24,623 nucleotides of DNA from a bacterium. Its GTDB lineage: Bacteria > Zhuqueibacterota > Zhuqueibacteria > Zhuqueibacterales > Zhuqueibacteraceae. Positions 51 through 19,654 of this stretch are shown piece after piece. A program made the position numbers and the translations under genes. The stretch lies in assembly GCA_044869275.1 (NCBI GenBank), contig JBIOXB010000104.1:1-24623 (forward strand), given 5' to 3'. How positions within the stretch are numbered: the stretch's first letter is position 1; every line of letters begins with the position of its first letter. The notes under the pieces were generated by a model. That model was not told the origin of the DNA. It worked only from the letters and a program-made list of their open reading frames with translations, and did not search any database.

Positions 51-1421
51 TCAAGCCTCCGGAGGGCGTAAGCCCAAGGCTTTGAGCTTGGTGGTGACGT
101 GGCTGCGATCCATGCCTGCGAATTCCGCGGTCTTGCTCACGTTGTTGCGGAAGCGCTGGAGCAATTGCGAAAAATACTGGCGCTCGAAGTTTTCCTTTGC
201 TTCTTTGTAAGGCAAATGTGAATGATCCGGCGCCGCGGAAGCCTGCGCGTTGACCAGCCGCGACTGGATGGTTTCCGGCTGAATGTCCGCGGAGTTCTCC
301 ATGAGCACGGCGAAAGTGATGAGATTTTCCAGCTCGCGTACGTTTCCAGGAAAATGATAATGCTCGAGCAGCTCCAGAGCTTGCCGGGAAATGCCGCGGA
401 TCGTCTTGCCGTTTTTGCGATTGCATTTCTTGATGAAATGCTCCGCCAGCAGCGGGATGTCGCCGTGGCGCTCGCGCAAAGGCGGAATCTCGATCACGAT
501 CTGATTCAGCCGGAAAAACAGGTCGTGCCGGAAGCGCCCTGCTTCCACTTCCTTTTGCAGGATCTTATTGGTGGCAGCAATGATGCGCACTTCCACTTTC
601 CGGAGCCGGTTGTCACCCACACGCTCGAAAATCTTTTCCTGCAGAAAGCGCAGAAACTTGAGCTGCAAGTGAGAAGAAAGATCGCCGATCTCGTCCAAAA
701 AAAGTGTCGAGCCGTTGGCGAGCTCGAACTTGCCGATGCGGTTCGCAATGGCACCGGTGAAAGCGCCTTTCACGTGCCCAAAAAGCTCGCTTTCCGCCAT
801 GTTTTCCGGCAGGCCGGCACAATCGGCCTTGATCATGGTTTCGTGCCGGCGACGGCTGCTGTCGTGAATCGCAACCGCGACCAGGTTCTTGCCCGTGCCG
901 CTTTCGCCGACGAGAAGGATACTCTCCTCCGTTTCCGCCACGCGGTGAATCAAACTGAAAACCCGGCGCATGGCTTCGCTTTGCGCCACGATATCCTCGA
1001 ACTGGTATTGGCGCTTGACTTCCTCGAGCTCGTAGTAGTTATTCCGCTCCAGCCGAAACTGATTGACCGCGGTTTCAATGCGCTGCCGCAAACTGGGAAA
1101 GTCGATCGGCTTCTCAAAGAAATCAAATGCGCCCGCCCGCATCGCTCTTGCCGAAGTATCGTCTTCGGCATGGCCGGTCAGGATGATGATGCAGATGTTG
1201 GGCTCTCTTTGGTGAAGCTTTTCCAGAACGTCGAAGCCGTCCAGGTCCGGCAGGATGAGATCCAAAAGAATGGCCTGGAAATTATCTTTGCTGGCCATAT
1301 TGAGCGCCATGCGGCCCGTGGCGGCTTGCTCGGTTTTGTAGCCTTCGTCCTTTAACCAGCGCGCCAATTGCTCCCGCATCGGTTGCTCGTCGTCAACGAT
1401 GAGAATCTTGAAAGGATTCAT
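51..1421 (-). CDS. Sigma-54-dependent response regulator, NtrC family (REC-AAA+-Fis HTH)
   Basis: REC motifs ILIVDDE, LLDL, FEKP; Walker A GESGTGK; intact GAFTGA; Walker B FLDEIG; RFRHDLFFRL; FPGNVRELEN; C-terminal HTH. Start moved to MNPFKIL (ATG 1421, or GTG 1424) after GGGGAG, which removes the overlap with the upstream gene. Confidence 0.96.
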   Translation of the reverse strand: MNPFKILIVDDEQPMREQLARWLKDEGYKTEQAATGRMALNMASKDNFQAILLDLILPDLDGFDVLEKLHQREPNICIIILTGHAEDDTSARAMRAGAFDFFEKPIDFPSLRQRIETAVNQFRLERNNYYELEEVKRQYQFEDIVAQSEAMRRVFSLIHRVAETEESILLVGESGTGKNLVAVAIHDSSRRRHETMIKADCAGLPENMAESELFGHVKGAFTGAIANRIGKFELANGSTLFLDEIGDLSSHLQLKFLRFLQEKIFERVGDNRLRKVEVRIIAATNKILQKEVEAGRFRHDLFFRLNQIVIEIPPLRERHGDIPLLAEHFIKKCNRKNGKTIRGISRQALELLEHYHFPGNVRELENLITFAVLMENSADIQPETIQSRLVNAQASAAPDHSHLPYKEAKENFERQYFSQLLQRFRNNVSKTAEFAGMDRSHVTTKLKALGLRPPEA

Positions 1422-1429
1422 CACAGCGT

Positions 1430-4400
1430 TTACTCCCCAAAAGTTTTCGTTGCACTTCTTTGTATGATGGTGGATTTCAACAACAGGCACTGATCGACCA
1501 AGGCGAGTATTTTTTCCCAGAACGAGGTATTGATCTCCAGAAAAAAGTCGCAGTACATTTCGGGAAAGCCCAATTGATCCAGCGACGCCGAGGTCAGAAT
1601 GATCGGCGTGGCCGGCGAGTTTTTTTTGAAGGCGGGCACGAAATCGATGGCGGTTTGCGTAGCAGTATAGTCCTTGCGCAAATGAAAATCCGAAACGATC
1701 ACGTCGAAGTCGTTTTGCAGGCAGCATTCCACGGCTTTCGTGCCCGACTCCGTGCCGGTGACTTTGTGCCCTTCTCCGGACAGAAGCTGCATGATTTTCG
1801 CGAGCATGTCGGTGTCGTCATTGATGACGAGAACGTTGCCGCGGGGTTTCCTGCTCACTTTTTGTGGAGGCGCACCCGTTTGAGTCTTTTCAGGCGATTT
1901 TTTTCCGCGTGGCGTTGGGCCTTCCCATTCCAAGGGCAGATTCACGACCACGGTGGTGCCGTGCCCCGGGGTGCTTTGCAGAATCAGCTTACCGTGATGA
2001 TCGGCTTCGACGATGCGTTTGGTAAGCGCCAGGCCGAGGCCGTAACCCTTCTCCTTGGTCGTGAAGAACGGCCGCAAGACTTCGTTGAGAATCTCCTCCG
2101 AAATGCCCGTGCCGGAATCCGAAAAGAGAATGCGCACCCAGCCCTCGTGACATTCCGCGCCAATGCGCAAGGTACCGCCGTCGGGCATGGCGTCGAGCGC
2201 ATTCGACATCACGTTGAAAAAGGCGCGCGCCAAACGGCCCGGGTCGGCATATAACGGCAGCGTCAAGGAAGCCTCGTCGGTGCGGATATCGACTTCCTGG
2301 CGCCGGGCACGCGCCGCCACCCATTGCACGGCTTCTTCCATGACACTGTGCAGGGGGCACCACGACATCTCTGGCGGAAATTTATATGCCCGGCTCTTGA
2401 GAAAATTGGCAAAATCTTCGATTTTTTTCACGTAAGCATTGATGCTCCGGATTGCGCTATTGAGTGCTTCGACGTTCAATTTGTGGTCGCGTTCGCGTTT
2501 TTCGAGCCACTGCGTTTCCCCGGCAATCATCGAAGAGAAATTCTTGATGTCATGTGTAAAGCCGGCAATGGTTTCGTCGATAATGGCGGTGTCCAAAGCC
2601 TTCGTGAGGCCAATTTGCGCATTGGCCAATTCCTCGCTCAGGCGCGCATTGGCAATGGCCACGCCTGCTTCGTTGGCGATTCCTTTGAGCAGCCGGAGAT
2701 CGGCCTCACCAAAATCGTCCTCGATCACACTTTCCATGGTAATCACGCCGAGGGCGTGGCGGTCGAAAAGAATGGGAACGAACAGCGCGGACTTGATCTG
2801 TGGCCCGGTCGGCGTATACAGCGCCTCCGGAGAGGCGGTGTCCGCGCAGAGATAATGCGTTTTGTTCTTGAGGACCCAGCCTTCGCGAGTGCGCTCATCC
2901 CAAAACTCGAACAGTTTTTTTTCGGCCCCAGCGTTGAGGCCGCGGGTCTCGCGCAGGAGAAACTCTCCCGTTTCGGGATTGACCAGGGTTACACTGAAGT
3001 TGCGCTTGTCCTTGCCGATGGCTTTCAGGCCCTCGCGGCAAATGGTGCCGAGCACGCCTTTGACATTGCGATGAGCGTTTATTTTCGTGCCGATGCGATA
3101 CAATGCCTCCAGCTCCTTGACGCGCACATCGCACAGCTCGCCGATCTTGTGGGCGACGGCGGCGTTGTGCGCAACTGCCGTCAGCGCTTCCTGGTCTTGC
3201 TCGCTAAAATCGTCCAAGCACAGGCTTTGCAAATCGATGACGCCAATGGTTTCGTCGCGAAAAACGAGCGGTATGGCCAGCTCTGATTTGATCGCCGGAT
3301 GCGTGGGGCGATAGTACGCGTCGCGCCGCACGTCCTTGGCGAGACGCGGCTCGCCATGATTGAGCACCCACGCCACCAGGCTGCGTTGGTAAATGCTCAG
3401 GGACCTGCCCAGCAGCTCATGGGCGAAGGCTTCGCCGTCCGCGGCTTTCAAAATGAGCTTGCCTCGTTCACTGTCCTTGATCCATACTAAAGCGACTTTG
3501 TTTTCGCGCCCAACGACGTTGAGACATTCGCTGGCGATGAGATTCAATATCTCCTGCATGCTGTTCTCATGGCTCAGCGCCTCGCCGATGCTGTTGGCGC
3601 TCATGACTTCCTGCGTTTTCTTTTCGGCAATACCAAAAAGGCGCTTGTTGCGATGCGTGATCGCGATGGCGTCCGCCAGCAACGACAGCAATTGCATCTG
3701 CGCCGGACGCAGAATTGTCGCCGTGCTGCCCGCCACCACCAAACAACCATGCGGTTCGTTGTCCACCAAGCCCGGCACGGCGAGTTCCCAACGCAGGTCT
3801 TCCCATAATGCAAAATACCGGAAGCTGGCGCCGCTGTCAACGCTCTCGACATTGTCCAAATACAGCGGCAGCCCGGTCTTGATGACATGTCCCGCTATGC
3901 CCTCGCCGTTTTCGATTTCCGGTCGTTGCGGCAACGGCTCCGGTGCATTCTCCGCAAAGCGGAAGCGCCAATCTTCTTCGCCGGGTTTGCGATAAACCAT
4001 ATAAGCGTGCTCCGTGCCGGTGATTTCTCCGGCCAGGCGCAGTATCTTATGGCTGATGGAGTCCAACTCCGTGTGTTTCCCGGCTTCTTGCAGGAGCAGG
4101 CGTACCTCCGCGAGCTCGTCGAAATAGCGCTGCAAATCCAGATGCATTTCGGTGTTTTGCAGGGCGAGTGCAGCGTAAGCAGCAAGGGATTCCAGCATTT
4201 TGATTTCGCTGCCGGTGAATTGCCGCGGCTTGCCCAGAGCGAGATTGATGACTCCCAGAATTTGTCCGGCGGCTTTGAGGGGCAAGCACGCCATGGCGCC
4301 CAGGTTGTATTTGAGCGCTATTTCACGACCAGTGAAATCCGGGCATTCGATTTCGTCGGTCACGTCGCTCACCACACGCGTGCGGCCCACCTGCGCCACC

Positions 4401-5785
4401 CAGCCGGCGATGCCCTGGCCCACCCGCAATGTGAAGGAGCTCATTTCATCCTGGCTTAAACCAATCGCATCGGCGATGTGCAAAAAGCCGCTGCCGTGAT
4501 CCTGCAACATGAGCGAGCAGCTTTTGGTGTTATCCACAATGTTCATGAAGGCTTCGTTGATGCTGCGCAAGATGTTGCCGCGCTCGAGATTGCCGCTGAT
4601 CATGTGCAGATTGCCCGTGAGCGCGTTCAGGTTGTCTTTGACCTCTTCCAGCTCGTGTACAGCTTTGGACAGCAATTCACGCGTACGCTGGTGATCCTGC
4701 GGTGAAGAGTAGAGATTGGCCAGCCGCTCGACCGTGAAATAATCATGAAACGCAGCTTCGTATATGCGATTGCGCACACGATAAAAGCCGTTGTGTTCGG
4801 CCAGCGCGCCCAGCGCCACCAAAGTTTTGCTGTTGGGGTCGAATTTGCTGGTACTCACCGTGCCGAGTTGCATGTTGTGCCGCAAACATTCCACCAATTG
4901 ATGGTCTTTTTCAATTTGGGTCATCACCATTTCGACGTTGGTGTCGCCCTCTTTCACAATGCTGTCGATCGCGGCTTCGGCGTTTTGCAGGGAAAACCCT
5001 GGCGGCTCTTGCCGCACGAAGGCCGTCTCCAAAATCCGGTAGCAAATTTTTTGCGCCAAATAGCCCGTGCCGGAAGTGGCCTCATAGAGCATGCGGGCGA
5101 AACCGGTGGCGAGGGGGAGGCGCAGATGATGCGCGACACGGCGTAACATCTCCTCTATGTCCTCGCAGCGAAAATCTTCCACTTGCGCGCGCATGGCATA
5201 CTCACCGAACGAATGGCCAGGATCGATTTGCAGGTCATTTGTGCCCAGCATGCCACTGATCATAAACTGAAAACGTGAGAGCTGCGCGTCCGTTGCTCGT
5301 GATTGCTGCAAATGCAGCAAAATCCGGAAGATTTCATGAATTAATACTTTGGGAAATGTCTCAACACCGTCTAAAATGAAAATGATCTTACCGTTGGGTG
5401 CAAGTTGCTTCGCGACTTCGACCATGGTGTTTTTGAGCTGATGCAAGTCGGGCGCTGCTCCCGCGCGCTCCACGCTGGCCGCCGCCGGATAAAGCGCTTG
5501 CAAGCGCCGGCGCAACAAACGACACCATTCATCCAATTGTGGCTGCGCCAGTTCCTCGGGCTTGATGAGCACGAACTGATAACCCAACTGGCGCATTTCA
5601 CATTCGTGAATGAGCGACAGCAAAAAACTGGTTTTGCCGATTTTCTTGCCGCCGGAAACAACGTACCAATTGCCGAATTCCAGGCCCGAGATCGTTTTGG
5701 CCATCAACGTTTTTCGGCTGATCGTGATCAGATCGTCTTGGCCCGGCTGCAAAGGCCGCTTGTAAGCAAAGGGATTGGCATACAT
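1430..5785 (-). CDS. Hybrid histidine kinase: N-terminal AAA_35/STAND-like P-loop domain, 4 GAF domains, HisKA, HATPase, atypical REC
   Basis: P-loop SGGKKIGKTS, IFILDGVE, TSGTGYLAQKIC, RNRIYEAAF; four GAF-like units; H-box GFTHDIKN; N-box NVMSNALDAM; DSGTGI, PFFTTK, GYGLGL; C-terminal VLVINDD...IVSD receiver. No transmembrane segment seen. Confidence 0.92.
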   Translation of the reverse strand: MYANPFAYKRPLQPGQDDLITISRKTLMAKTISGLEFGNWYVVSGGKKIGKTSFLLSLIHECEMRQLGYQFVLIKPEELAQPQLDEWCRLLRRRLQALYPAAASVERAGAAPDLHQLKNTMVEVAKQLAPNGKIIFILDGVETFPKVLIHEIFRILLHLQQSRATDAQLSRFQFMISGMLGTNDLQIDPGHSFGEYAMRAQVEDFRCEDIEEMLRRVAHHLRLPLATGFARMLYEATSGTGYLAQKICYRILETAFVRQEPPGFSLQNAEAAIDSIVKEGDTNVEMVMTQIEKDHQLVECLRHNMQLGTVSTSKFDPNSKTLVALGALAEHNGFYRVRNRIYEAAFHDYFTVERLANLYSSPQDHQRTRELLSKAVHELEEVKDNLNALTGNLHMISGNLERGNILRSINEAFMNIVDNTKSCSLMLQDHGSGFLHIADAIGLSQDEMSSFTLRVGQGIAGWVAQVGRTRVVSDVTDEIECPDFTGREIALKYNLGAMACLPLKAAGQILGVINLALGKPRQFTGSEIKMLESLAAYAALALQNTEMHLDLQRYFDELAEVRLLLQEAGKHTELDSISHKILRLAGEITGTEHAYMVYRKPGEEDWRFRFAENAPEPLPQRPEIENGEGIAGHVIKTGLPLYLDNVESVDSGASFRYFALWEDLRWELAVPGLVDNEPHGCLVVAGSTATILRPAQMQLLSLLADAIAITHRNKRLFGIAEKKTQEVMSANSIGEALSHENSMQEILNLIASECLNVVGRENKVALVWIKDSERGKLILKAADGEAFAHELLGRSLSIYQRSLVAWVLNHGEPRLAKDVRRDAYYRPTHPAIKSELAIPLVFRDETIGVIDLQSLCLDDFSEQDQEALTAVAHNAAVAHKIGELCDVRVKELEALYRIGTKINAHRNVKGVLGTICREGLKAIGKDKRNFSVTLVNPETGEFLLRETRGLNAGAEKKLFEFWDERTREGWVLKNKTHYLCADTASPEALYTPTGPQIKSALFVPILFDRHALGVITMESVIEDDFGEADLRLLKGIANEAGVAIANARLSEELANAQIGLTKALDTAIIDETIAGFTHDIKNFSSMIAGETQWLEKRERDHKLNVEALNSAIRSINAYVKKIEDFANFLKSRAYKFPPEMSWCPLHSVMEEAVQWVAARARRQEVDIRTDEASLTLPLYADPGRLARAFFNVMSNALDAMPDGGTLRIGAECHEGWVRILFSDSGTGISEEILNEVLRPFFTTKEKGYGLGLALTKRIVEADHHGKLILQSTPGHGTTVVVNLPLEWEGPTPRGKKSPEKTQTGAPPQKVSRKPRGNVLVINDDTDMLAKIMQLLSGEGHKVTGTESGTKAVECCLQNDFDVIVSDFHLRKDYTATQTAIDFVPAFKKNSPATPIILTSASLDQLGFPEMYCDFFLEINTSFWEKILALVDQCLLLKSTIIQRSATKTFGE

Positions 5786-5819
5786 TACGTCAAGCCACCG
5801 TAGAGGTTCTGTTCATCAA

Positions 5820-5915
5820 GGGGGGTGGATTATGGGATTGAGCGAGTGCGGGATTGACGGGCTTACGACAGTCTGTCAATCCATTGATCCAACACTCCAA
5901 TAATCCAACCCTCCC
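5820..5915. repeat. Imperfect inverted repeat built partly from 8-nt TCCA-periodic units
   Basis: Inner stem GGATTGACGGGC (5851-5862) / GTCTGTCAATCC (5871-5882); outer arms TGGATTATGGGATTG / CAACACTCCAATAATCCA; TCCA at 5880, 5888, 5896, 5904. Confidence 0.75.
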
Positions 5916-5932
5916 GTTCCGTTTTGCGCAGA

Positions 5933-6340
5933 TCATAATTGCAAACTCTGCAGGTACGTCGCAATCACTTTATCAAAGGGGACGGGCTTCTTAAGATAAT
6001 CCATGACCCCCAGCCTTTTCATTTTTTCCTCAACCTCGGCGTTACCCACGGCTGTGAGCACCACTACTTTGAGTTGCGGATCGCAATGCGGAATGTGTGC
6101 ACCGCGGATCAGCTCCAGCAGATGCAATCCACTGCGCCGCGGATTGACATCTCCGGCAAAAGCATGGCCCGGATCGAACATGACGTCAAGCGAGAGCAAA
6201 TCGAACCGGTCGAGTTGCAGTTGGGCCACGGCCGCATCGGCGTTTGGGGCCGCGACGCAGGCGATGTTCCTCTGTTCCAGGCAATAGAAATAGGGATTCA
6301 CCCCGCGCGCCTCGTCTTCGACAAAAAGGATGCGTGCCAT
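5933..6340 (-). CDS. Single-domain response regulator (receiver only)
   Basis: ILFVEDE, LSLDVM (phospho-Asp), VVLTA, YLKKP; starts 3 nt after the upstream kinase stop. Confidence 0.93.
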   Translation of the reverse strand: MARILFVEDEARGVNPYFYCLEQRNIACVAAPNADAAVAQLQLDRFDLLSLDVMFDPGHAFAGDVNPRRSGLHLLELIRGAHIPHCDPQLKVVVLTAVGNAEVEEKMKRLGVMDYLKKPVPFDKVIATYLQSLQL

Positions 6341-6343
6341 GGT

Positions 6344-9300
6344 TCACTTCTCCCGGCGATGTTTGGGCAATATGACGCGAAACGTGGTCCAATAATCTTG
6401 ATATTCCCTGATTTTTTGCGGATTTTTCGTGGCCGGCTCGCTCTTGACTTTGACCTCTCCGCCGTGCTTGAGAATGATTTCCCGGCAAATCTTCAAGCCC
6501 AGGCCTGTGCCCGGAATGTAACGCATCTTGTCCCGGGCATCGCCGCGTGAGAAGCCCTTGAAAATGGTTTCGAGCTCGTGCGCGGGAATGCCCAAGCCGC
6601 GATCGGTGATCTCGAAATTCAGATTGGTGCCATCGTCGTACCCGTTGATGATGATGAGCCGGTTGTAATGCGAATACTTGATGGCGTTGTCGATCAAATT
6701 GTTGATCGCCTGCTCCATGCGATCGCGATCGAATTCGATTCTGGGCAGGCGCTTGACGCCGTCTTTGACGGTGAAGCGCAGGCCCCGTTCCAGCGCACGG
6801 AAATTGTACACGCTGATACAGGCATCGATGAGATCCTGCAAATAACCGGCCTTGAAAACGTATTCCAGTTTCTCGCGCGTGCGGTCGCTGAGCAGCAGGG
6901 TATTATCCATGTGCCGCTTGGCGCGCATGATCTCCTCCTCGATGGCGCCCACGTATTGGTCGATTTCCTTGTCCAGCCGGCTTTGCTCGAGCCGGAATTT
7001 CAAGCCGCCGACTTGCGTCATGATGTTGTGCAACGGCGCACGAAACTCATGCGCGGTCTCGGCGATGTTCGATTCCAGCCGGTCGATTTTGATCAGATCG
7101 CGAATGTTGCGGATCGCGATGGCCACCTGTTGCGCGAAAGTTTCCACCACTTTCATGCGCTTGCCCAGCACGATTTCATCGCCGTGCACCAGTTCGGAGT
7201 GGTCGGTGAGGTCGATTTGCAGTGTGCCTATGGCTTTGTCTTTCGCAATCAACGGAATGACGTACTGCGATTTGATGCCGGCCCTGTGGATGAGCTCCGT
7301 ATCGCAGCGCGCGTCCGTTTCGCAATCTTTAACCCAGATGGGGCTTTTTGTGCGCAGCGCTTGTGCCAGAATGTCCTTGCTCTTGAGTTCGCAGTGCGTC
7401 CGGTGCACGATCGCTTTCCAGTTTTCGCCGATGGCGTGGCGGCCTTCGATCGTGCTCGTGGCTTCGTTGACCAGCGAGAGCATGCCTTTGGCATACCCGA
7501 TGCTGAGCAGGCTGCCGAAGATCCTTTCTATCGCCTCCTTTTCCGTGGCCGCGTTGAGAATTTCGATGCTCGCCTGGTTGAGCGCATCTAGCTGCATCTC
7601 GAGCTCGTTGCGCAGGGCCAATTCCTGTTTCATCTGATTCAAGAGATTGGCCTGCTCGATGCCGATGCCGGCGAGATTTACGATGCGCTGCAAGGTTTCG
7701 ATCTCGTCCGAGGCGATCTCGGATTTGTGCGCTTTGTCGTGACCGGTCTCGAGCGTGCCGAGCACTTCGCCGCGCGCGAAGATCGGAATGATGGTCCGCA
7801 CCCAGCGCTTGTGCCCGAACTTTTCGAAAATGTCCTGGTCGAGGCGTTTATCCCAGCCGGTGAGATATTCGGGTTGCTTGTGGCGGGCGACCCAGGCTTG
7901 GATGTCTTTGCTATCCAGGGAATGCCAGGCGGCGCGCAAGAATTCCTCCGGCACACCTCTGCCCTTGATCGTGCCGATGGCGCGTTTGGCGGGATCGACA
8001 ATGGAAATCGTCGCGTATTCGAATCCCAAAATATCCACGACGGCGTTCAAGATACTCTCCAGAATTTGATCCTCGACCGGATCTTTTCCGGTGGCCGCTT
8101 GCTGTACCATGTCTATGGCCCGCAAACGGGTAATGATGTCGTTTTTGGAAGCAATGAGATGAGCGTTCTCCAGCGCCACGGCCGCGTGGTTGGCGAGCGT
8201 GGTGAGAAAGTACAAATCATTGTTCGAGAAGGCCTTCAACTCTTCGCTGTCAACACTGATGACGCCGCGTTTTTTGATGTTGCCGGTTTCTTTTTCGATA
8301 TATGTGACCGGCACGATGAGCTTGGATCTCACGTTTTGAAAAATGGCGTTATAGCGATCAATCGGGAGCGCCGGCACGTCGTTGTAGAGCATGGGTCTTT
8401 GAATCTGAAAAACGTATCCGGTGACGCCCTTTTCTTTCGGCGTAAACGCCACCGGAAATTCTTTCTCGTCCGGAAGCCTTGAATTCAACGCTTTGAAGAC
8501 CAGGACGTCCTTCTTGTCGTCATAGAGCTTGAAATAGGCACGCACGCTGTTCGGCAAACGTAGGCATAGTTTGGTGATCTGTTCCAGAATATCATCGATA
8601 TTGTGCGTTTCCACCAGCGACCGGCCGGCGTCCAGCAGGGCTCTGATCTCGCGCTGATCCTTGGCAATGCCGATAGTGCCGGTTTCTTGGCCATGCTCGT
8701 TGTGCAGCAAGCTCACGGACAAGCTGATTGGAATCGGTTCGCCCTCTTTGTCGGTGAAAGTGGTTTCGTAGTTTTTGAGGCGTTTGTCCTTCCTGCGACG
8801 CACCTGGCGCAAAATATCGCGAGCCTTGTCCTTGCCGGTGGAATTCTCATCGGAGGGATAACGCTCGGTGACGTGACAACCCACGAAATCACCGAACAAA
8901 TTTTTCGCGCCCTGGTTCATATATCGAATCCAGCCGTCATTGTCGCACATCACCACTGGATCAGGTGTGCTTTCGACGATGAGCTGATAATCTTTCAGCG
9001 TCTTTAGCAGATGCGCGTTCTTGATCGAAATCACCAGTTTGGCAGCGAGCACCTTCATGAGTGGTTCGTCCAGCTCTTTCGAAAAACCGGCGTTCTGAAT
9101 GGGCTGGCCGTCCGGCCCCAACTTGTTATAGGCCAAAAGCAGGCCGATCAGGTTGTCGCCATCGAGCATCGGATGCGCCAGCTCGGAGTATACTTTTTGC
9201 GAATCTAAGAAATCCACCGGATTTTCTGGATTGCGCGCGGGATGTTCATCGAGGGCTTTGCCGTAGATATTGAAGATTTCCTTGCGAAAAGCGATGTAGC

Positions 9301-10060
9301 CCGTCATGCCGGGCTTGGGTTCGTCTTTGGACCGAGGCACATCCTTGATCGGATGAAAGACCCGTTTTTTGAAGACCTTGCCTTCTTGCGAATAGCTGGT
9401 CTCCAAGCTGATCTCCCCTTCTTTGACGAGCCAGAGGCTGCAAAGCTCCGCCTCCAAAATCTCCGTGGTCTTTTCGACGATATGATCCAGTTTTTCCGAT
9501 AGCGATTTATTTTCAAACTCGGCCAGCAACACGTTGTTGGCTTGCGAGAGCAAGCCCAGCTTTTTGATCATGCGATCGCTATCGGCAAGCTTCTGTTCTT
9601 TGTCGGCGAGTTTTTGCGATTTGCGCATCGCCAGGGAGCACAGCCCGGCTGCGGATTCCGCGACGCCCAAATCCCCAGCTTGAAATCGGGCGTCGCCCTG
9701 TAGTTCCAGCACCAACAGTCCGAGCGGTTTGCCATTGGGCTTGGGGAGAGGAACGATCATTTGGGAGGAGGAATGCTTCACGCCATTATTTCCCTTGGTG
9801 GGAAACAGCCGGTCTTGTGTGACGAAGCCGCCGGCCTCGGTGTGATTTTCGAACAATCGCTGCAGCCGCACCGGCGTTTCTGGCAACGGGATACTGCACT
9901 TGTTATTGCCAAAACAGGAACAATTTTCGCCGAAACTGCACTCCAGCCGGTCCTGCGCCGAGTCATAAAGCAGCAAACAAGCGCGGCTGGCTTTGGTAAT
10001 TTTAACGGCCTCTGTGACAATCTCCCCGACTAGGTGATCGTCCATTCGCGCGTTATTCAT
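6344..10060 (-). CDS. Cytoplasmic sensor histidine kinase GAF-GAF-PAS-GAF-GAF-GAF-HisKA-HATPase
   Basis: SD GGAGGT before ATG; PAS IVESTPDPVVMCD...MNQGA...GIAKD; five GAF-like units; H-box TAHEFRAPL; NNLIDNAIKYS; DRGLGI; GTGLGL. Confidence 0.94.
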   Translation of the reverse strand: MNNARMDDHLVGEIVTEAVKITKASRACLLLYDSAQDRLECSFGENCSCFGNNKCSIPLPETPVRLQRLFENHTEAGGFVTQDRLFPTKGNNGVKHSSSQMIVPLPKPNGKPLGLLVLELQGDARFQAGDLGVAESAAGLCSLAMRKSQKLADKEQKLADSDRMIKKLGLLSQANNVLLAEFENKSLSEKLDHIVEKTTEILEAELCSLWLVKEGEISLETSYSQEGKVFKKRVFHPIKDVPRSKDEPKPGMTGYIAFRKEIFNIYGKALDEHPARNPENPVDFLDSQKVYSELAHPMLDGDNLIGLLLAYNKLGPDGQPIQNAGFSKELDEPLMKVLAAKLVISIKNAHLLKTLKDYQLIVESTPDPVVMCDNDGWIRYMNQGAKNLFGDFVGCHVTERYPSDENSTGKDKARDILRQVRRRKDKRLKNYETTFTDKEGEPIPISLSVSLLHNEHGQETGTIGIAKDQREIRALLDAGRSLVETHNIDDILEQITKLCLRLPNSVRAYFKLYDDKKDVLVFKALNSRLPDEKEFPVAFTPKEKGVTGYVFQIQRPMLYNDVPALPIDRYNAIFQNVRSKLIVPVTYIEKETGNIKKRGVISVDSEELKAFSNNDLYFLTTLANHAAVALENAHLIASKNDIITRLRAIDMVQQAATGKDPVEDQILESILNAVVDILGFEYATISIVDPAKRAIGTIKGRGVPEEFLRAAWHSLDSKDIQAWVARHKQPEYLTGWDKRLDQDIFEKFGHKRWVRTIIPIFARGEVLGTLETGHDKAHKSEIASDEIETLQRIVNLAGIGIEQANLLNQMKQELALRNELEMQLDALNQASIEILNAATEKEAIERIFGSLLSIGYAKGMLSLVNEATSTIEGRHAIGENWKAIVHRTHCELKSKDILAQALRTKSPIWVKDCETDARCDTELIHRAGIKSQYVIPLIAKDKAIGTLQIDLTDHSELVHGDEIVLGKRMKVVETFAQQVAIAIRNIRDLIKIDRLESNIAETAHEFRAPLHNIMTQVGGLKFRLEQSRLDKEIDQYVGAIEEEIMRAKRHMDNTLLLSDRTREKLEYVFKAGYLQDLIDACISVYNFRALERGLRFTVKDGVKRLPRIEFDRDRMEQAINNLIDNAIKYSHYNRLIIINGYDDGTNLNFEITDRGLGIPAHELETIFKGFSRGDARDKMRYIPGTGLGLKICREIILKHGGEVKVKSEPATKNPQKIREYQDYWTTFRVILPKHRREK

Positions 10061-10274
10061 GGACCACCTCCTTCTCTCTTCCCTGCTTGCTTAGACTACC
10101 AAAGCTTGCTTTATTGGGCCTCCGCCATTATCAGAAAAATTTCCCTCACTTTCTGCAAATCCTCTTCCGCAAAATTTGGGTTTGGCGATTAAAATTCTAA
10201 TGTGATCGATCGACAATAGAGTAGTTCACGTAAACGGCTAATATGGCCTGTTCTGCGAGACAAAGGAAACGCTG

Positions 10275-10859
10275 ATGGACGCCAGCAAAAAGTGGGTGGG
10301 CGAACGTATCGTGACGATAGGTGGCACTTTCGATGAGCTCCACCGCGGCCATAAGGAATACATCCGCCTGGCGTTTGAATTCGCAACGCGGGTGATTATC
10401 TATGTCAATTCCAATCAATTTAATTCCGACCAATTCACCAACGGCAAAAAAAAATATCTGGCCCATCCGTATGCTCACAGATTGGAAAAGCTCAGAGAAT
10501 TTTTGCAGGAAATAGAACAAGAAATGGAAGAAGAGAATGCTCTGCATAGGAAGTATTGTCAAATTAAAGAACTGAATCATGTGGATGATGTGAAGAAGGA
10601 TTATTTGGAAAACCCGGAACTCCAAGAAGTTTACATGGCCATCGTTTCACCGGAATACTATCATAGTTTTGTCGAGTTGAATCGCGCGCGCGCGGCGCGC
10701 GGCCTCCCCAGTTTCTTGATTTTGGTCAAGCATAGAACCCGCGATTTACAGCAAGACATATCTTCCACGCTCATTCGCGAAGTTCTCCATTGTCCCACGG
10801 CTGACCACATCCCACCCGCCTCAGAGACGGCAGCGCAGGAAGAAATATTGTATTTCTGA
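10275..10859 (+). CDS. HIGH-superfamily nucleotidyltransferase resembling archaeal/eukaryotic-type phosphopantetheine adenylyltransferase
   Basis: GGTFDELHRGH (HxGH), PYAHRLEKLREFL, AIVSPE, NRARAARGL, ISSTLIR; AAGGA upstream of ATG. Confidence 0.85.
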   Translation: MDASKKWVGERIVTIGGTFDELHRGHKEYIRLAFEFATRVIIYVNSNQFNSDQFTNGKKKYLAHPYAHRLEKLREFLQEIEQEMEEENALHRKYCQIKELNHVDDVKKDYLENPELQEVYMAIVSPEYYHSFVELNRARAARGLPSFLILVKHRTRDLQQDISSTLIREVLHCPTADHIPPASETAAQEEILYF

Positions 10860-10875
10860 CTTGTTTAGTCACCCA

Positions 10876-10891
10876 TACGAAATTCGTGCCA
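10876..10891 (-). promoter_or_regulatory. Candidate sigma-54 promoter with variant -12 element, facing left
   Basis: Minus strand TGGCACGAATTTCGTA: perfect -24 box TGGCACG, GG-N10-GT instead of GG-N10-GC; IHF consensus just upstream. Confidence 0.45.
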
Positions 10892-10906
10892 CAGTTTTTG
10901 GAAAAC

Positions 10907-10919
10907 TAAGCACTTGATT
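10907..10919 (-). promoter_or_regulatory. IHF binding site consensus
   Basis: Minus strand AATCAAGTGCTTA matches WATCAANNNNTTR exactly. Confidence 0.55.
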
Positions 10920-11299
10920 TTGTGTGTTTGAAGACTAACCCCAAGACCCAAGTCGTTGGTTTTTTCCAACATAGATCCCTTTTGTGTTGTAATAAGCCAA
11001 CACATCGGTTTTATGCCGGGGTTACGACGGACAAGCGGCCAGATGACGCTTTTTCCCTACACCTCCATTAATTTTGCAACACTCACTTTTTCCCCTGCAT
11101 ATTTCTTAGTGAATCTGTATTGGAATGTCAAGTTCTCTCATACCAGCCACGGCCTCGTAATTTTTGAGGGCTAGCGGTTGCGTAGATTTTCATAAGATCT
11201 TGTTTCTCTGGAGTGAGTGCGGGATCGAAAATAATTGCTGCTTTCGAAGCCCTCATACTGCGACTTCAGAAATCTGCTCGGTTAAGCAAACGCATTTTC

Positions 11300-11314
11300 T
11301 GGTACGCTGCTTGC
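11300..11314 (+). promoter_or_regulatory. Sigma-54 (-24/-12) promoter
   Basis: TGGTACG-CTGC-TTGC versus consensus TGGCACG-N4-TTGC: one mismatch, correct GG-N10-GC spacing, intergenic, just upstream of an ORF. Confidence 0.75.
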
Positions 11315-11331
11315 GTTGTGATGTAACAAAA

Positions 11332-11682
11332 ATGCAACTCGTCTCATCAGCACAAAAACAGAAAATGCGCGATTCTTTGACAAGGAGCTTCTGGAAATTC
11401 TTGGACGACCGCCTGCCAGCTCTGCGCCACTCGACCCAGGAGTTGAAGGTCTGGCTCATGGAATACGCTTTTTCCAGTTTGCTTCGCTCCACGTGGGCCG
11501 ATTCTGTGATCAAACAAACGCAGCACCTGTTCGTGAGCAGCTTGTTGCTGCAACTGCGAGATCTGGAAGATTTCTTCGGCCTGTTGCAAGCCTTTTCTCC
11601 CTCGCTGATGTATGTGTGTATGCAGGCGGCGGTCATAGTGTTAAAGTATTTGAAGAAAGTGCGCGTCACGCCCTCTGCCTAA
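11332..11682 (+). CDS. Hypothetical small helical protein (start 11332 or 11365)
   Basis: 3' part of ORF 11164..11682 directly downstream of the sigma-54 motif; amphipathic helical composition; no clear SD and no recognised family. Confidence 0.5.
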   Translation: MQLVSSAQKQKMRDSLTRSFWKFLDDRLPALRHSTQELKVWLMEYAFSSLLRSTWADSVIKQTQHLFVSSLLLQLRDLEDFFGLLQAFSPSLMYVCMQAAVIVLKYLKKVRVTPSA

Positions 11683-11796
11683 GTCTTGACCGATTGAAAC
11701 GGGTTCCGCAATTCTGTCTCGCTGGTGTACAACTGGGTTGCCCGGTGGCGAAAAACCTGGGCGGGAATCTCATGCTCCAATCTGGGAGGTAATTTC

Positions 11797-12201
11797 ATGA
11801 TTTTCGGTTTGCTTTCATGGCATTTACATGGCGAAGGCAAGCAGCTTTTGACTGCCCGAATAAAATCCCGAGACGGCTCCGTCGTGCGCGCGCAGCTCGC
11901 AAATGTGCCGCTCACCTTCAAAACGGCTTTTGGCGAGACGCGCATCTTCCTCAGCCGCATGCGCCGCATGGAAAATGTAGCTCATCTGGATACGTTGAAA
12001 GATGTGGCTAAGCTGCACCGGTTTCGCATCTTTTGTACGGATGGCGACGAACTGTTGGGCTTTCCGCTCTCGCCCGGTCGCATTCCGGTGGCCATTGCGG
12101 ATGCGGTGCCTGCGTGGAACCTAATGCGCTTGGGCGATATTCTCTCGCTTGAAATTTTGTCGCCGGAGTCTTTTGCAGTGCCGGAACATGCCTTGAATTA
12201 G
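11797..12201 (+). CDS. Hypothetical beta-rich protein, 134 aa
   Basis: Strong SD GGGAGGT 6 nt before ATG 11797, in frame with ORF 11725..12201; followed by a 12-bp hairpin. Confidence 0.72.
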   Translation: MIFGLLSWHLHGEGKQLLTARIKSRDGSVVRAQLANVPLTFKTAFGETRIFLSRMRRMENVAHLDTLKDVAKLHRFRIFCTDGDELLGFPLSPGRIPVAIADAVPAWNLMRLGDILSLEILSPESFAVPEHALN

Positions 12202-12241
12202 GCGAAGAATTGTGGAAATCGGGCGGATGGAGCGTAGCGCC

Positions 12242-12271
12242 GGACGGCTGAATTGGGGCATTCAGCCGTCC
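12242..12271. repeat. Perfect 12-bp hairpin (REP-like or terminator)
   Basis: GGACGGCTGAAT-tggggc-ATTCAGCCGTCC. Confidence 0.75.
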
Positions 12272-12292
12272 ATAGGGATGGTCTGTCTCGCC

Positions 12293-12324
12293 AAAAACAA
12301 AAAGACCGGCAGAATTTGCCGGTC
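12293..12324 (-). terminator. Intrinsic terminator for the desaturase gene
   Basis: 8-bp stem GACCGGCA/TGCCGGTC (12304-12324) followed on the minus strand by TTTTTGTTTTT. Confidence 0.75.
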
Positions 12325-12364
12325 GCAAGAATTGGCTAACGGAATTGGAGCTCTGTGGAAGGAC

Positions 12365-12388
12365 CAAATCCCCTCCTCCGGGGATTTG
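12365..12388. repeat. 9-bp hairpin
   Basis: CAAATCCCC-tcctcc-GGGGATTTG between convergent genes. Confidence 0.6.
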
Positions 12389-12453
12389 ATCGCGTGAAAG
12401 GCAGCGAGCGCTAAAGATTTTTTTTGATAGGCCTCAGCGGCTAACTTATCACC

Positions 12454-13557
12454 TCATGCATGAACCGTTGCCGCTTGTGCTTCCGGAATTTGATCCTGCC
12501 GGCCCAACGTTTTCAAAAAGCGATAATGCGCGGCAATGGCGGCGCGCACCGTGGGGTACGAAACATATTTGATGCCGAACTCTTCGCAAGCTCTTTTGAC
12601 GATCTTGCTGATTTCCGGATAATGTATATGGCAGACACGCGGAAACAAATGGTGTTCGATCTGAAAATTCAAGCCGCCAAAATACCAGGCTGCCAGTTTG
12701 TTTTTGGGCGCAAAGTTCGCCGTGGTTTCCACTTCGTGAATCGCCCATTCGTTTTCGATCGTGGCCGAGGCCGGATCCGGCTTGGGGAAGGTGTTGCCTT
12801 CCACGACGTGCGCCAATTGGAACGTGAGCGCCAGCGTCAAGCCCAGCACGACGTGCATCAGTACGAAAAATGCGAGCACGTGCAGCACGGGATGGAAGAA
12901 CATCGGCAGCACTAGCATGTAGCCGAAGTAGAAGATCTTGGTCAAAAAGAACAGCGTGGCTTCGCCCGCGGAGAGCTTGGGCATTTTATAATCGCCGATG
13001 CGGCCGGTGAAAAATTTGCGAAAATCGCCGACGTGAATCCACAACAAGGTCATCAAGGTATAGGCGGGGAAAGCATAAAGCTGTTGAAAGCGGTGCCAGG
13101 GCCGCCGCGGCTGTTCCGGGCTGAAACGCATAATGCCATCCATATGAATGTCTTCGTCCAGCTCGTTGATATTGGTATAGGTGTGATGTAGAATGTTGTG
13201 CTTGTGCCGCCAAAACCAATAACTGCCGCCGATCAAATTAAGCGTGAATCCCATAATCCAGTTGACTTTCTTGCTGCGCGAATATCCGCCATGATTGCCA
13301 TCGTGCATGATGTTGAATCCCACCAGAGCACTGGCTTGCGCCACCGCCACCGCGCTGATGATTGCCATGATCAATGAAGAAGTTGCGAAGACCAGCAAGA
13401 AGTAAGAAGTCGCCAGCCACAGCAAAATAACCGCCGTCTTGACATACATGCGCCAATTGGCGTGGGGAGAAAGCTTGTTCTCCTCAAAATATTCCTGCAC
13501 CTGTTTTTTAACTTCTTCGTAAAAGCCGAGGTGGGAGGTGAACGTAATCTTTTGCAT
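12454..13557 (-). CDS. Membrane fatty acid desaturase (delta-6-like / acyl-CoA desaturase, no cytochrome b5 domain)
   Basis: His boxes HDGNH, HKHNILHH and QIEHH; hydrophobic segments; SD GAGGAG. Confidence 0.95.
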   Translation of the reverse strand: MQKITFTSHLGFYEEVKKQVQEYFEENKLSPHANWRMYVKTAVILLWLATSYFLLVFATSSLIMAIISAVAVAQASALVGFNIMHDGNHGGYSRSKKVNWIMGFTLNLIGGSYWFWRHKHNILHHTYTNINELDEDIHMDGIMRFSPEQPRRPWHRFQQLYAFPAYTLMTLLWIHVGDFRKFFTGRIGDYKMPKLSAGEATLFFLTKIFYFGYMLVLPMFFHPVLHVLAFFVLMHVVLGLTLALTFQLAHVVEGNTFPKPDPASATIENEWAIHEVETTANFAPKNKLAAWYFGGLNFQIEHHLFPRVCHIHYPEISKIVKRACEEFGIKYVSYPTVRAAIAAHYRFLKTLGRQDQIPEAQAATVHA

Positions 13558-17544: not shown

Positions 17545-18204
17545 GTGCAGCAAAACGATCACAAACACAAGCCTTTTGTGGCCATTGCGGGCAACATTGG
17601 AGTGGGCAAGACCACGCTCACGAATATTCTCATCGCACGGCTGGGCTGGCAGGGATTTCTGGAGAAAGAAGTCGCGAATCCATATTTGGCGGATTTCTAT
17701 GGCGACATGAAGCGCTGGTCCTTTCATTCGCAGCTTTTTTTTCTTAAGGAGAGAATGAAGGATCACATACAAATCCAGCGCAGCGCGCAACCCTGCGTGC
17801 AGGATCGCACGATTTACGAGGACGCTGAAATATTTGCCCGAAATCTGTTCGAGCGCGGCATGATGGAGGCGCGCGACTTTGCCTGTTACACGGATATTTA
17901 TGAAGCCATTGCCGCTGCCCTGCGCCCGCCGGATGTGATTGTGTATTTACGCGCTTCGATTTGGACGCTGATCAGCCGCATCCGCCATCGCGGCCGCGAT
18001 TTCGAACAGAACATCGACAAGGAATATCTCGCGCAGCTCAACTTCGCGTATGATCGCTGGGCCAGGCGCATGGCGCAACAGCATCGCGTCATGATTGTGG
18101 AAACGGATGCGCTCGACGTGCCGGGCGACACCGCGGCCTTGGAAAAGATGGTGGCGGAGGTTTGTGGCTTCATAGAAAAGGCGCCATTGCAGGCGCCGGC
18201 ATGA
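17545..18204 (+). CDS. Deoxynucleoside kinase (dCK/dGK/dAK family)
   Basis: AGNIGVGKTT P-loop, NPYLADFY, QLFFL, DRTIYED, lid RIRHRGRDFE; GTG start. Confidence 0.93.
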   Translation: MQQNDHKHKPFVAIAGNIGVGKTTLTNILIARLGWQGFLEKEVANPYLADFYGDMKRWSFHSQLFFLKERMKDHIQIQRSAQPCVQDRTIYEDAEIFARNLFERGMMEARDFACYTDIYEAIAAALRPPDVIVYLRASIWTLISRIRHRGRDFEQNIDKEYLAQLNFAYDRWARRMAQQHRVMIVETDALDVPGDTAALEKMVAEVCGFIEKAPLQAPA

Positions 18205-18244
18205 AAGTGGGGGTTGTCCTGCCATTTAAAACCACCGGGTTCGC

Positions 18245-19654
18245 ATGGCTTTTGTCGATTATATCATCATCCTCCTCTATCTTCTCGCCTTGTTGGTCTT
18301 TGGATTCTACCGCAGCAAAACTGCGGTAAACGATCCTGAAGAGTACGTGCTCGCCGGGCGGAGATTGTCCCTGCCGGCATTCGTGGCCACATTGGTGACG
18401 ACGTGGTATGGCGGCATTCTGGGTGTGGGTGAGTTCTCCTACAACCACGGCCTTTCGAATTGGCTGGTGTTTGGCGTGCCCTATTATCTCTATGCCTTGC
18501 TCTTCGCATTTTTTCTAGCGGGGCGAGCGCGGCGGAGCAATCTCTTCACCATTCCCGAACAATTGGAAAACAGTTATGGGCGTGCTTGTGGCATGGCCGG
18601 GGCTTTGTTCGTTTTTTTGCTCTCCAGCCCGGCGCCTTACGTGTTGATGCTAGGTGTACTCGGCCAGATTTTATGGGATTGGCCCCTGTGGCTGGGCGTG
18701 ATCGCCGGCGCTTTTTTTTCGACAGTGTACGCCTGGCGCGGCGGGTTTGCCGCGGTGGTACGCACGGAAATTTTGCAATTCGTGTTGATGTATGCCGGCT
18801 TTGCCGTGTTGCTTTACTTTGCCGTCTCGCATCACGGCGGCGTGAGCTTTTTGCGCGAGCATTTGCCCGCTACGCATTTGACGTGGCACGGTGGCAATCG
18901 TCTGCAATATATACTGGTATGGTATTTCATTGCCATGAGCACGCTGGTGGATCCCACTTTTTACCAGCGCTGCTTTGCGGCAAAGGACGAAAGTGTCGCG
19001 CGCCGGGGTATTTTGATTTCCGTGGCCTGCTGGTTCGTGTTTGATTTGATGACCACGGCGTGCGGCCTGTACGCGCGCGCGTTGTTGCCAAATCTGCAAG
19101 AAGGCGCCGCGGCGTATCCGCAGCTCGCGCTGCAGCTCTTGCCGGAAATCGGGCGCGGACTTTTCTACGTTGCCTTGCTGGCCACCATCATGTCCACGGT
19201 GGACGGCTTTTCTTTTCAGTCGGCCGTGACTCTGGGAAAGGATTTTCTTTCCAAGATTTTCCCCATGGGCGGCGCCCGCGGTATCACTTTCCATACGCGC
19301 GCCGGTTTGTTGCTGACGTTCGCCCTCGCGGTGGTCATCGCCGTGCGGGCGCAATCTGTGGTGACGATTTGGTACCAACTCGGCGCGCTCACGACGCCGG
19401 CACTGTTGCTGCCGCTGGCCTCCAGTTTTTCGCAGCGCTGGCGGATGTCGCCGCTGGCCGCATTCTTTTCAATGGTGCTGAGCGCAAGTATAACGGCCGG
19501 TTGGCTGCTTAACGCCGAGGAGGGCGAATACTGGTGGGGTCTTGAGCCGATTTATTCCGGCTTGGCGGTCTCCTGCCTTTGTTTTGTTGCTGATCATATT
19601 CTGAGAAAACGAAAAGTGCGAAGCGCGAGCCTGCCACCACTTGCTCGTCAATAG
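18245..19654 (+). CDS. Sodium:solute symporter (SSS) family transporter
   Basis: Many hydrophobic helices; EYVLAGRRL, GGFAAVVRTEILQ, YQRCFAAKD, LATIMSTVD motifs. Confidence 0.93.
   Translation: MAFVDYIIILLYLLALLVFGFYRSKTAVNDPEEYVLAGRRLSLPAFVATLVTTWYGGILGVGEFSYNHGLSNWLVFGVPYYLYALLFAFFLAGRARRSNLFTIPEQLENSYGRACGMAGALFVFLLSSPAPYVLMLGVLGQILWDWPLWLGVIAGAFFSTVYAWRGGFAAVVRTEILQFVLMYAGFAVLLYFAVSHHGGVSFLREHLPATHLTWHGGNRLQYILVWYFIAMSTLVDPTFYQRCFAAKDESVARRGILISVACWFVFDLMTTACGLYARALLPNLQEGAAAYPQLALQLLPEIGRGLFYVALLATIMSTVDGFSFQSAVTLGKDFLSKIFPMGGARGITFHTRAGLLLTFALAVVIAVRAQSVVTIWYQLGALTTPALLLPLASSFSQRWRMSPLAAFFSMVLSASITAGWLLNAEEGEYWWGLEPIYSGLAVSCLCFVADHILRKRKVRSASLPPLARQ

Follow-up and report, generated by a model that had tools for sequence, protein, structure and literature searches.

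Two described arrangements come close to the locus reported here. Upstream activating sequences of sigma-54 promoters lie 100 bp or more upstream, and it is an established pattern that their activators are found near their targets (PMC4641369). In noncontiguous operons, the inserted gene is repressed when the operon is expressed, and identification of such an operon needs transcript data (PMC11034616). Here, we analysed contig JBIOXB010000104.1 of the bacterial assembly GCA_044869275.1, whose 24,623 nucleotides (nt) are referred to as the window; it is an entire contig of a 6.67-Mb genome that is 94% complete, and close homologues are labelled 'candidate division KSB1 bacterium'. The window holds a four-gene operon, kinB-rec-kinA-act, encoding two large histidine kinases, a single-domain receiver and a sigma-54 activator, next to a divergent nucleotidyltransferase (NTase) gene and two small open reading frames (ORFs), ORF1 and ORF2. 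The operon, the NTase and ORF1 constitute a real, conserved and apparently undescribed module of known parts. Domains, catalytic residues, gene order, linkage, and conserved promoter-like sites and boxes are observed. We consider it an even call that they amount to a membrane-free KSB1 operon whose activator would act from two palindromic boxes on two back-to-back sigma-54 promoters, forming an autoregulated phosphorelay with the layout of a noncontiguous operon.

Across 167 genomes of the phylum (given by G numbers; relatives are labelled KSB1), kinB orthologues (E < 1e-190) occur in 20 genomes from six families, and in G014 rec-kinA-act is present while the contig stops short of kinB, which brings the operon to 21/167. 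Gene order is constant across these 21 as far as the contigs extend. An earlier interpretation made without database searches, here the sequence-only reading, had proposed this four-gene operon, and it held, on the minus strand, when the starts were checked, with intergenic gaps of 3, 147 and 8 nt along kinB-rec-kinA-act. The NTase clade is present in 16/167 genomes, 14 times divergently adjoining kinB and twice as an orphan (G004, G010). The contigs of 18 of the 21 operon genomes show the DNA upstream of kinB, and linkage was counted in these: a divergent NTase stands at kinB in 14/18, in five families. Of the 146 genomes that lack the operon, only 2 have the NTase. A metagenome scan yielded at least seven loci, of which three reach upstream of kinB, all with the NTase. 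A profile of ORF1 finds it in 8/167 genomes, always beside the module and confined to one of the six operon families, whereas ORF2 occurs in 12/167 and adjoins the module in G000 and G001 only. The earlier proposal of a single module is thus upheld for the operon, the NTase and ORF1 (8/8 of its genomes), and not for ORF2; by gene-neighbourhood analysis, the homologous operons do co-occur with NTase and ORF1, contrary to the outcome, no co-occurrence at all, that had been named as its refutation. The operon itself varies: in G047, G154, G155 and G162, kinA has no STAND part and its receiver is a free gene, and in G047 and G155 a receiver-TIR-like gene is inserted. Homologue searches gave 13 proteins for KinA and 34 for KinB; those with names are labelled KSB1, 'bacterium' or, in one case, 'Calditrichaeota'.

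The sequence-only reading had also placed a sigma-54 promoter before ORF1. The site is there, and such a site is conserved 66–91 nt before ORF1 in 9/9 loci examined (shuffle p 0.003–0.03); taken alone, it is not above chance, with 21 occurrences of its motif genome-wide versus 16–42 for wrong spacers. A second, opposite site and a palindrome pair were absent from that reading. The leftward site emerged from an alignment of the DNA before the FRG gene of relatives, and is retained here despite the absence of FRG. In family f1 (8 genomes and 3 metagenome contigs), it lies 31–57 nt from the NTase stop or FRG start in 11/11 loci (shuffle p 0.003–0.043), with a comparable site on the opposite strand in 0/11; as background, the genome has 3089 long ORFs, of which 56 carry a site of this kind within 75 nt. 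FRG is next to the site in six of the 11 loci. The other five have no FRG and no long ORF between the site and the NTase stop, and no conserved ORF antisense to the NTase was found in eight loci. The leftward site is also present in G154, and it is decayed in both orphan-NTase genomes.

The two palindromic boxes upstream of the leftward site are conserved as a pair in six genomes. Using a matrix trained without this genome, the window's pair ranks first in the 6.67 Mb (37.1 vs 28.1 for the next), and ten shuffled matrices gave 19.1–26.4. A tandem box pattern has its sole match at the module locus in this genome, and likewise in 3/5 relatives; the pattern was built from these sites, so that the match is by construction and only its uniqueness is informative. 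Other lineages have related but different palindromes at similar distances, and the activators there partly differ in their helix-turn-helix (HTH). Elsewhere in G003 and G012, the same boxes form a high-scoring pair (18.5, 17.3; L058:9189-9227, L052:11059-11097) inside the 3' end of an 800-amino-acid (aa) gene upstream of the ORF2 operon, a pair that G006, G009 and G015 lack; the boxes in G003 and G012 may act on ORF2 from a distance. Near-consensus sigma-54 sites also precede a gene convergent with act in G003 and G009 (L043:4303, L039:4626), encoding a 290-aa protein with a signal-peptide-like start and, in G003, DUF4384. The idea that kinB is driven from a sigma-54 site within the NTase-kinB gap was rejected, as no conserved site was found there; the one good site, in G154, drives in the NTase direction. 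A scan of 9900–12600 for sigma-70 promoters and terminators gave signals at chance level. The features are collected in Table 1.

Table 1. Features of the module and its surroundings in the window (positions count from the first nucleotide of the contig).
Feature	Position	Strand	Description
act	51..1421	-	NtrC-type sigma-54 activator, 456 aa; receiver (D54, K104), AAA+ with GAFTGA at 219-224, Fis-type HTH; Pfam PF00072, PF00158, PF25601, PF02954
kinA	1430..5785	-	STAND/AAA_35-like NTPase (about 1-350), four GAF, histidine kinase (H1078), atypical receiver without Lys; 1451 aa
rec-kinA spacer	5786..5932	-	long hairpin of a genome-wide repeat family; fold -44.6 kcal/mol
rec	5933..6340	-	canonical single-domain receiver (D52, K118), 135 aa
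kinB	6344..10060	-	GAF-GAF-PAS-GAF-GAF-GAF histidine kinase (H1004), 1238 aa; GAF2 of the CyaB2/phosphodiesterase class
NTase	10275..10859	+	HxGH nucleotidyltransferase, 194 aa; KSB1 clade related to archaeal-type phosphopantetheine adenylyltransferase
Leftward sigma-54-type site	10876..10891	-	antisense into NTase 3' end, towards kinB; precedes FRG gene in relatives
Palindromic box 1	10954..10971		TGTTGG-N6-CCAACA type; candidate activator site, 79 nt upstream of the leftward site
Palindromic box 2	10985..11002		candidate activator site, 110 nt upstream of the leftward site
Rightward sigma-54-type site	11300..11315	+	before ORF1; promoter of the sequence-only reading
ORF1	11365..11682	+	105 aa, no known family; homologues with C-terminal hydrophobic helix; module-linked in its family
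ORF2	11797..12201	+	134 aa, predicted tandem Sm/SH3-like beta-barrel; adjoins the module in this genus only

The protein anatomy bears out most of what had been read from the sequence. All nine GAF domains and the PAS domain were matched by Pfam, each on its own segment, with five GAFs in KinB and four in KinA. Both H-boxes are intact, and the N, G1, F and G2 boxes are present in aligned orthologues. The absence of transmembrane helices was likewise confirmed: none of Act, KinA, Rec, KinB and NTase has a 19-residue window over a hydropathy of 1.8, while the window's desaturase, used as a control, has 39. Three receivers had been counted, and of these Rec and Act are canonical; the KinA receiver keeps D1366, yet the conserved Lys after beta-5 is absent in 10/10 aligned kinases carrying it. 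It is therefore probably not a normal phospho-switch. Act has the features expected of its class, namely the phospho-Asp and Lys of its receiver, AAA+ with GAFTGA, Walker A and B, arginine fingers and the C-terminal HTH. The genome has one copy of rpoN (TIGR02395 over cut-off) and 48 sigma-54 activator matches, 46 of them strong, including the window's act. Against named NtrC-family models (NtrC, AtoC, ZraR, PrsR, NtrX), Act scores 401.9 bits at best versus a cut-off of 502.6 (TIGR02915), and its best 25 NCBIfam families are all below cut-off. Literature searches found no paper on this gene set, although supplements of comparative-genomics papers could list these proteins.

For the proposed NTPase fusion, which lies at the N-terminus of KinA, Pfam gave nothing above its cut-off (AAA_35, E = 0.006) and the PDB no informative match; by its Walker motifs and by stand-alone relatives matching AAA_35, it appears STAND-like. 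Walker A is intact, Walker B reads LDGVE, and GxG is found here versus GxP in two relatives, while a stand-alone relative matches AAA_35 at E = 2.5e-14. Such relatives lie 3' of a large NTPase (L172:1861-6274 in G155; L173:9054-13572 and L174:6091-10225 in G166 and G060); that NTPase has two ATPase stretches in G155, and the relatives in G166 and G060 lie beside apparent V/A-type ATPase genes. In KinB, profile search places GAF2 closest to cAMP/cGMP-binding GAFs (1ykd, E = 1e-16), and NK...F...D(E) at 312–333 is kept in 14/14 aligned orthologues. We take this to be the motif named NKFDE, which is presumably structural rather than ligand-specific. GAF4 has many invariant residues and is a putative second candidate ligand site.

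The kinase core of KinB is PhoR/WalK-like, and that of KinA is closest to AtoS/ZraS/PrsK. KinB would phosphorylate Rec, as contig C48 and several relatives have a KinB-like kinase paired separately with a Rec-like receiver, and KinA would phosphorylate the activator, given the affinity of its core; we think these assignments rather probable. On C48 (L060:8422-13719), a paralogous kinase with five GAFs and a PAS domain is followed by the Rec-like receiver and a 238-aa unknown protein, with no kinA or act; no leftward-type site precedes that kinase. Pairs of this type also occur in G001, G004, G010, G016, G031, G041 and G056.

The divergent HxGH nucleotidyltransferase of the sequence-only reading was recovered, with HRGH at residues 23–26. 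Its best family and structure are those of archaeal phosphopantetheine adenylyltransferase (PPAT; NF001985, 77 bits with a family cut-off of 104; PDB 3do8, E = 6.5e-17), and the HxGH fold and ATP-binding residues of archaeal-type PPAT (PRK00777) are present. By comparing 30 clade rows with 66 mostly archaeal rows, we found Y29, Y128, K152 and R154 to be invariant in the clade, with the ATP-side residues retained. A quick tree puts the clade on a long branch (Shimodaira–Hasegawa-like approximate likelihood ratio test, SH-aLRT, 99), the bacterial CoaD row of that tree standing on an unreliable long branch. Ratios of nonsynonymous to synonymous substitution rates (dN/dS) are 0.10–0.27. A housekeeping CoaD role was rejected, the genome encoding a separate bacterial coaD. 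The NTase is duplicated in G012 and L184, and tandem-domain proteins also occur. Among the matches listed in a GTDB-wide locus scan with the NTase alignment, archaeal PPATs swamp the rest. This undescribed clade appears to serve signalling and not CoA synthesis. Distant relatives of about 280–340 aa (P0109, P0115, P0120, P0133 and others) apparently carry a degenerate domain copy followed by an intact one.

In relatives, the NTase keeps company with domains linked to nicotinamide adenine dinucleotide (NAD). An FRG gene is convergent to it in G001, G003, G009, G012, G015 and L184, and this FRG subfamily is present in 6/167 genomes, 5/6 times beside the NTase. TIR_2 is fused to the NTase, on either side, in P0024 and P0088. 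Frg has an ART-superfamily fold and is a possible NADase, and TIR is among the NAD-consuming domains (PMC9503650). The FRG of relatives matches the PADLOC candidate PDC-S15 (E = 6e-46); of the five window proteins or segments scanned with PADLOC defence models, NTase, ORF1, ORF2 and Rec were unmatched, and the KinA N-terminus had one marginal match (E = 5e-4). The TIR fusions and FRG neighbours are a lead to an NAD-type acceptor of the NTase, not a demonstration of it.

The activator likely uses the boxes at 10954–11002 and opens both promoters. The rightward one would drive ORF1, a small membrane-protein gene, and the leftward one would be transcribed antisense through the NTase towards the operon, in six relatives first encoding the FRG protein. 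The simplest history is that the leftward site is the operon's own promoter, with the NTase and sometimes FRG in its leader. That its transcript crosses the NTase and reaches kinB, giving the operon positive feedback and repressing the NTase, falls in our estimate slightly short of an even chance. In the six FRG loci, the FRG and NTase stops are 4–30 nt apart or overlapping, too close for a terminator to fit between them, and overlapping transcripts are expected. The four NTase-less operons all have a sigma-54 site (score 10.75–13.75) 144–296 nt before the first kinB start codon, two of them sharing a TCGC variant at -12. Alternatively, the activator might drive short local targets only: the leftward promoter would belong to FRG, as a relic where FRG is lost, or to an antisense RNA against the NTase, the operon promoter would lie in the NTase-kinB gap, and there would be no feedback. 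We regard this as unlikely, though it has points in its favour. FRG follows the site in 6/11 loci including that of the same-genus G001, so that its loss here may be recent; the gap is at least 175 nt and could hold promoters; and G007 and G013 have a weaker version of the site (score 9.75). Local targets fit less well with a site that persists without FRG in G007, G013, L185, L186 and G154 and decays in the two genomes where the NTase is an orphan, or with a similar site directly before kinB in NTase-less operons. Several points nevertheless weigh against read-through to kinB and the wiring around it. In family f6, none of G042, G047 and G162 has a leftward site in the 150 nt next to the NTase stop (0/3), and the best one in G021 is 285 nt away; G031 was left out of this comparison because of a contig edge. 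Three of the four NTase-less sites are outside the shuffle-tested 150 nt, and kinship among the 11 positive loci means that they do not count as 11 independent events. The score for the sites was set by hand to a consensus and allows -12 variants that had been observed beforehand, and the seeds for the boxes came from a pattern devised with all six regions, including that of this genome, already in view. Weak terminator-like hairpins occur on the operon strand within the NTase gene here and in L186, and 45 other strong sigma-54 activator matches in the genome compete for assignment to the 11300 promoter.

The NTase would work as an adenylyltransferase that uses ATP and has an altered acceptor site. 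It would counteract the ON state, most likely through the rebuilding or removal of a nucleotide of the NAD/ADP-ribose type that a GAF or the STAND domain reads; we give this step as a whole a low probability. Carried further, the module would be a nucleotide-gated bistable switch, in which a PPAT-derived adenylyltransferase holds an NAD/ADP-ribose-type pool in the OFF state, and a disturbance sensed by GAF or STAND domains makes the phosphorelay fire a sigma-54 transcript. This would amplify the kinases, silence the NTase through antisense read-through and induce, in genomes that have them, an FRG NADase and a membrane protein, as a commitment to defence or development that links two-component signalling with NAD-based conflict chemistry. 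This we hold to be improbable. Set against the nucleotide link, the genome itself is without that FRG, TIR is found on just 2/33 longer NTase relatives scanned, and TIR/FRG genes are common passengers; in a single-sequence search the match of GAF2 to 1ykd is weak (E = 6e-5) and without ligand information. Moreover, the operon is without the NTase in 4/18 assessable genomes (G019, G022, G135, G155), which weakens the NTase as its only input. In G019 and G022, GAF conservation is lost without the NTase (GAF2, GAF4), but not in G135 and G155, where GAF2 is no more divergent. The same four genomes bear on the sequence-only reading, by which the NTase makes a diffusible nucleotide messenger, the GAFs sense it, both kinases integrate it, and ORF1 and ORF2 are the outputs. 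The NTase linkage, the lack of membrane helices, the cyclic-nucleotide class of GAF2 and the conserved ORF1 promoter are all as it would have them, but ORF2 is adjacent in only 2/12 genomes, ORF1 is restricted to a single family, and a leftward promoter expected to repress the NTase is a better fit to an antagonist or negative feedback than to a simple upstream input. We find this proposal as improbable as the switch. Least probable of all, in our view, is an ordinary multi-kinase NtrC-type system for general metabolites, with the NTase as a spare hitch-hiking PPAT and the neighbours as passengers. It would account for the archaeal PPAT as the best NTase match and for large cytoplasmic kinases of the KinA/KinB sort being common in the genome. 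It does not readily account for a score below the family cut-off, a coaD elsewhere in the genome, the well-supported long branch of the clade and its altered acceptor-side residues, or for linkage across five families with tandem and TIR-fused NTase forms.

The two small ORFs had been read as orphan outputs of the activator. This is retained for ORF1, whose site is conserved beside the module; ORF2 is no general member, and the second promoter faces the NTase, the operon and, in relatives, FRG. Alignment with relatives corrected both starts to ATG (11365 for ORF1, 11797 for ORF2). A single-sequence search with ORF1 matched in the same genus only, and positional homologues exist in three genera (cross-genus hhalign E 3e-11 to 2e-9, control unmatched). 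Its dN/dS of 0.19–0.26 in three pairs points to purifying selection. In the ESM Atlas, ORF1 gave mixed helical matches at low recognition only. Homology of ORF1 to a small membrane ORF preceding ORF2 in genus g3 was rejected. In L184 and L185 (L184:2532-2930, L185:4148-4555), the place of ORF1 is held by a small membrane protein with, by eye, a LysM-like C-terminus and its own sigma-54 site. The structure model of ORF2 (predicted local distance difference test, 76) matches LSm/Hfq with Z 3.5–4.1 over about 50–65 residues, and its best structural match is 4uqx (Z 7.9, root-mean-square deviation 3.9, 107 aligned); Foldseek gave no match at E <= 0.001, and the ESM Atlas only unnamed clusters below 0.9. 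ORF2 lies several genes past act in G016 and after a different cluster in genera g3 and g4. That conserved cluster (L054:10366-15723, also L056-L059) consists of a methyltransferase and of 730-aa and 800-aa proteins without Pfam match, by eye a degenerate kinase and a receiver, and in g3 a 76-aa membrane ORF comes next, followed by ORF2.

The hairpin in the rec-kinA spacer is not module-specific: blastn against the genome gives 75 rows for it at E < 0.01, the self-hit counted. A G-rich repeat occupies the contig end immediately past the act stop (window:1-60), and Rfam and tRNA scans gave no match. Beyond ORF2, window:12454-14345 encodes a fatty acid desaturase and a secreted protein with a dioxygenase fold, which are both syntenic in G001, and window:14469-17414 an extracytoplasmic function (ECF) sigma factor, a HEAT-repeat anti-sigma-like protein and a repeat-rich LiaG-like protein, in an order kept in G001. 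A deoxynucleoside kinase and then a sodium:solute symporter follow (17545-19654). The remainder (window:19710-24623) encodes a regulator of the ArsR type together with an SRPBCC protein, an uncharacterised secreted protein of 176 aa, a methyltransferase and, cut by the contig end, a kinase-receiver-adenylate cyclase hybrid.

The analysis gives a regulatory module of an uncultured phylum a concrete, testable wiring diagram, from activator through boxes and two promoters to targets. If read-through is true, sequence conservation alone would have predicted a sigma-54 noncontiguous operon that regulates itself, and if the NAD link is true, histidine-kinase signalling would be tied to the TIR/FRG chemistry of phage defence. 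If neither is true, the module is a large but ordinary phosphorelay.

Compared with known systems, the module shares with NAD-consuming conflict modules (TIR, Frg; PDC-S15) the FRG of its relatives, the NTase-TIR fusions and the receiver-TIR-like gene in two operons, while none of these genes is in the window and the module is a transcriptional phosphorelay. The NTase has the HxGH fold of archaeal-type PPAT (PRK00777; 3do8) and shares GGTFD-LH-GH, R69, N136, R139 and S163 with it; it differs in its identity of about 30%, in Y29, Y128, K152 and R154 in place of L, T and variable residues, in missing the C-terminal RIRxGEI of the archaeal rows compared, and in a genome with its own coaD. A preprint that touches on HIGH nucleotidyltransferases (10.64898/2026.10.19.760177) describes other systems. 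KinB GAF2 aligns with the GAFs of Anabaena adenylate cyclase (1ykd) and phosphodiesterases (1mc0, 6mzb) and keeps NK...F...D(E), a likeness of motif and profile; the output of KinB is a histidine kinase. With NtrB/NtrC-type systems (AtoS/AtoC, ZraS/ZraR, PrsK/PrsR), it has in common the receiver-AAA+-HTH activator with GAFTGA and a KinA core best matching AtoS, ZraS and PrsK, and its tandem palindromes, about 80–110 nt upstream of a -24/-12 site, resemble upstream activating sequences (PMC4641369). It departs from them in its two cytoplasmic kinases, nine GAFs, STAND-like domain, Lys-less receiver and extra stand-alone receiver, and in a nucleotidyltransferase between promoter and operon. This last feature is what it shares with the noncontiguous men operon of Staphylococcus aureus, where an opposite-strand gene lies between the promoter and the same-strand genes (PMC11034616); here, the layout is read from conserved promoter motifs only, and the promoter is sigma-54-type and would be autoregulatory.

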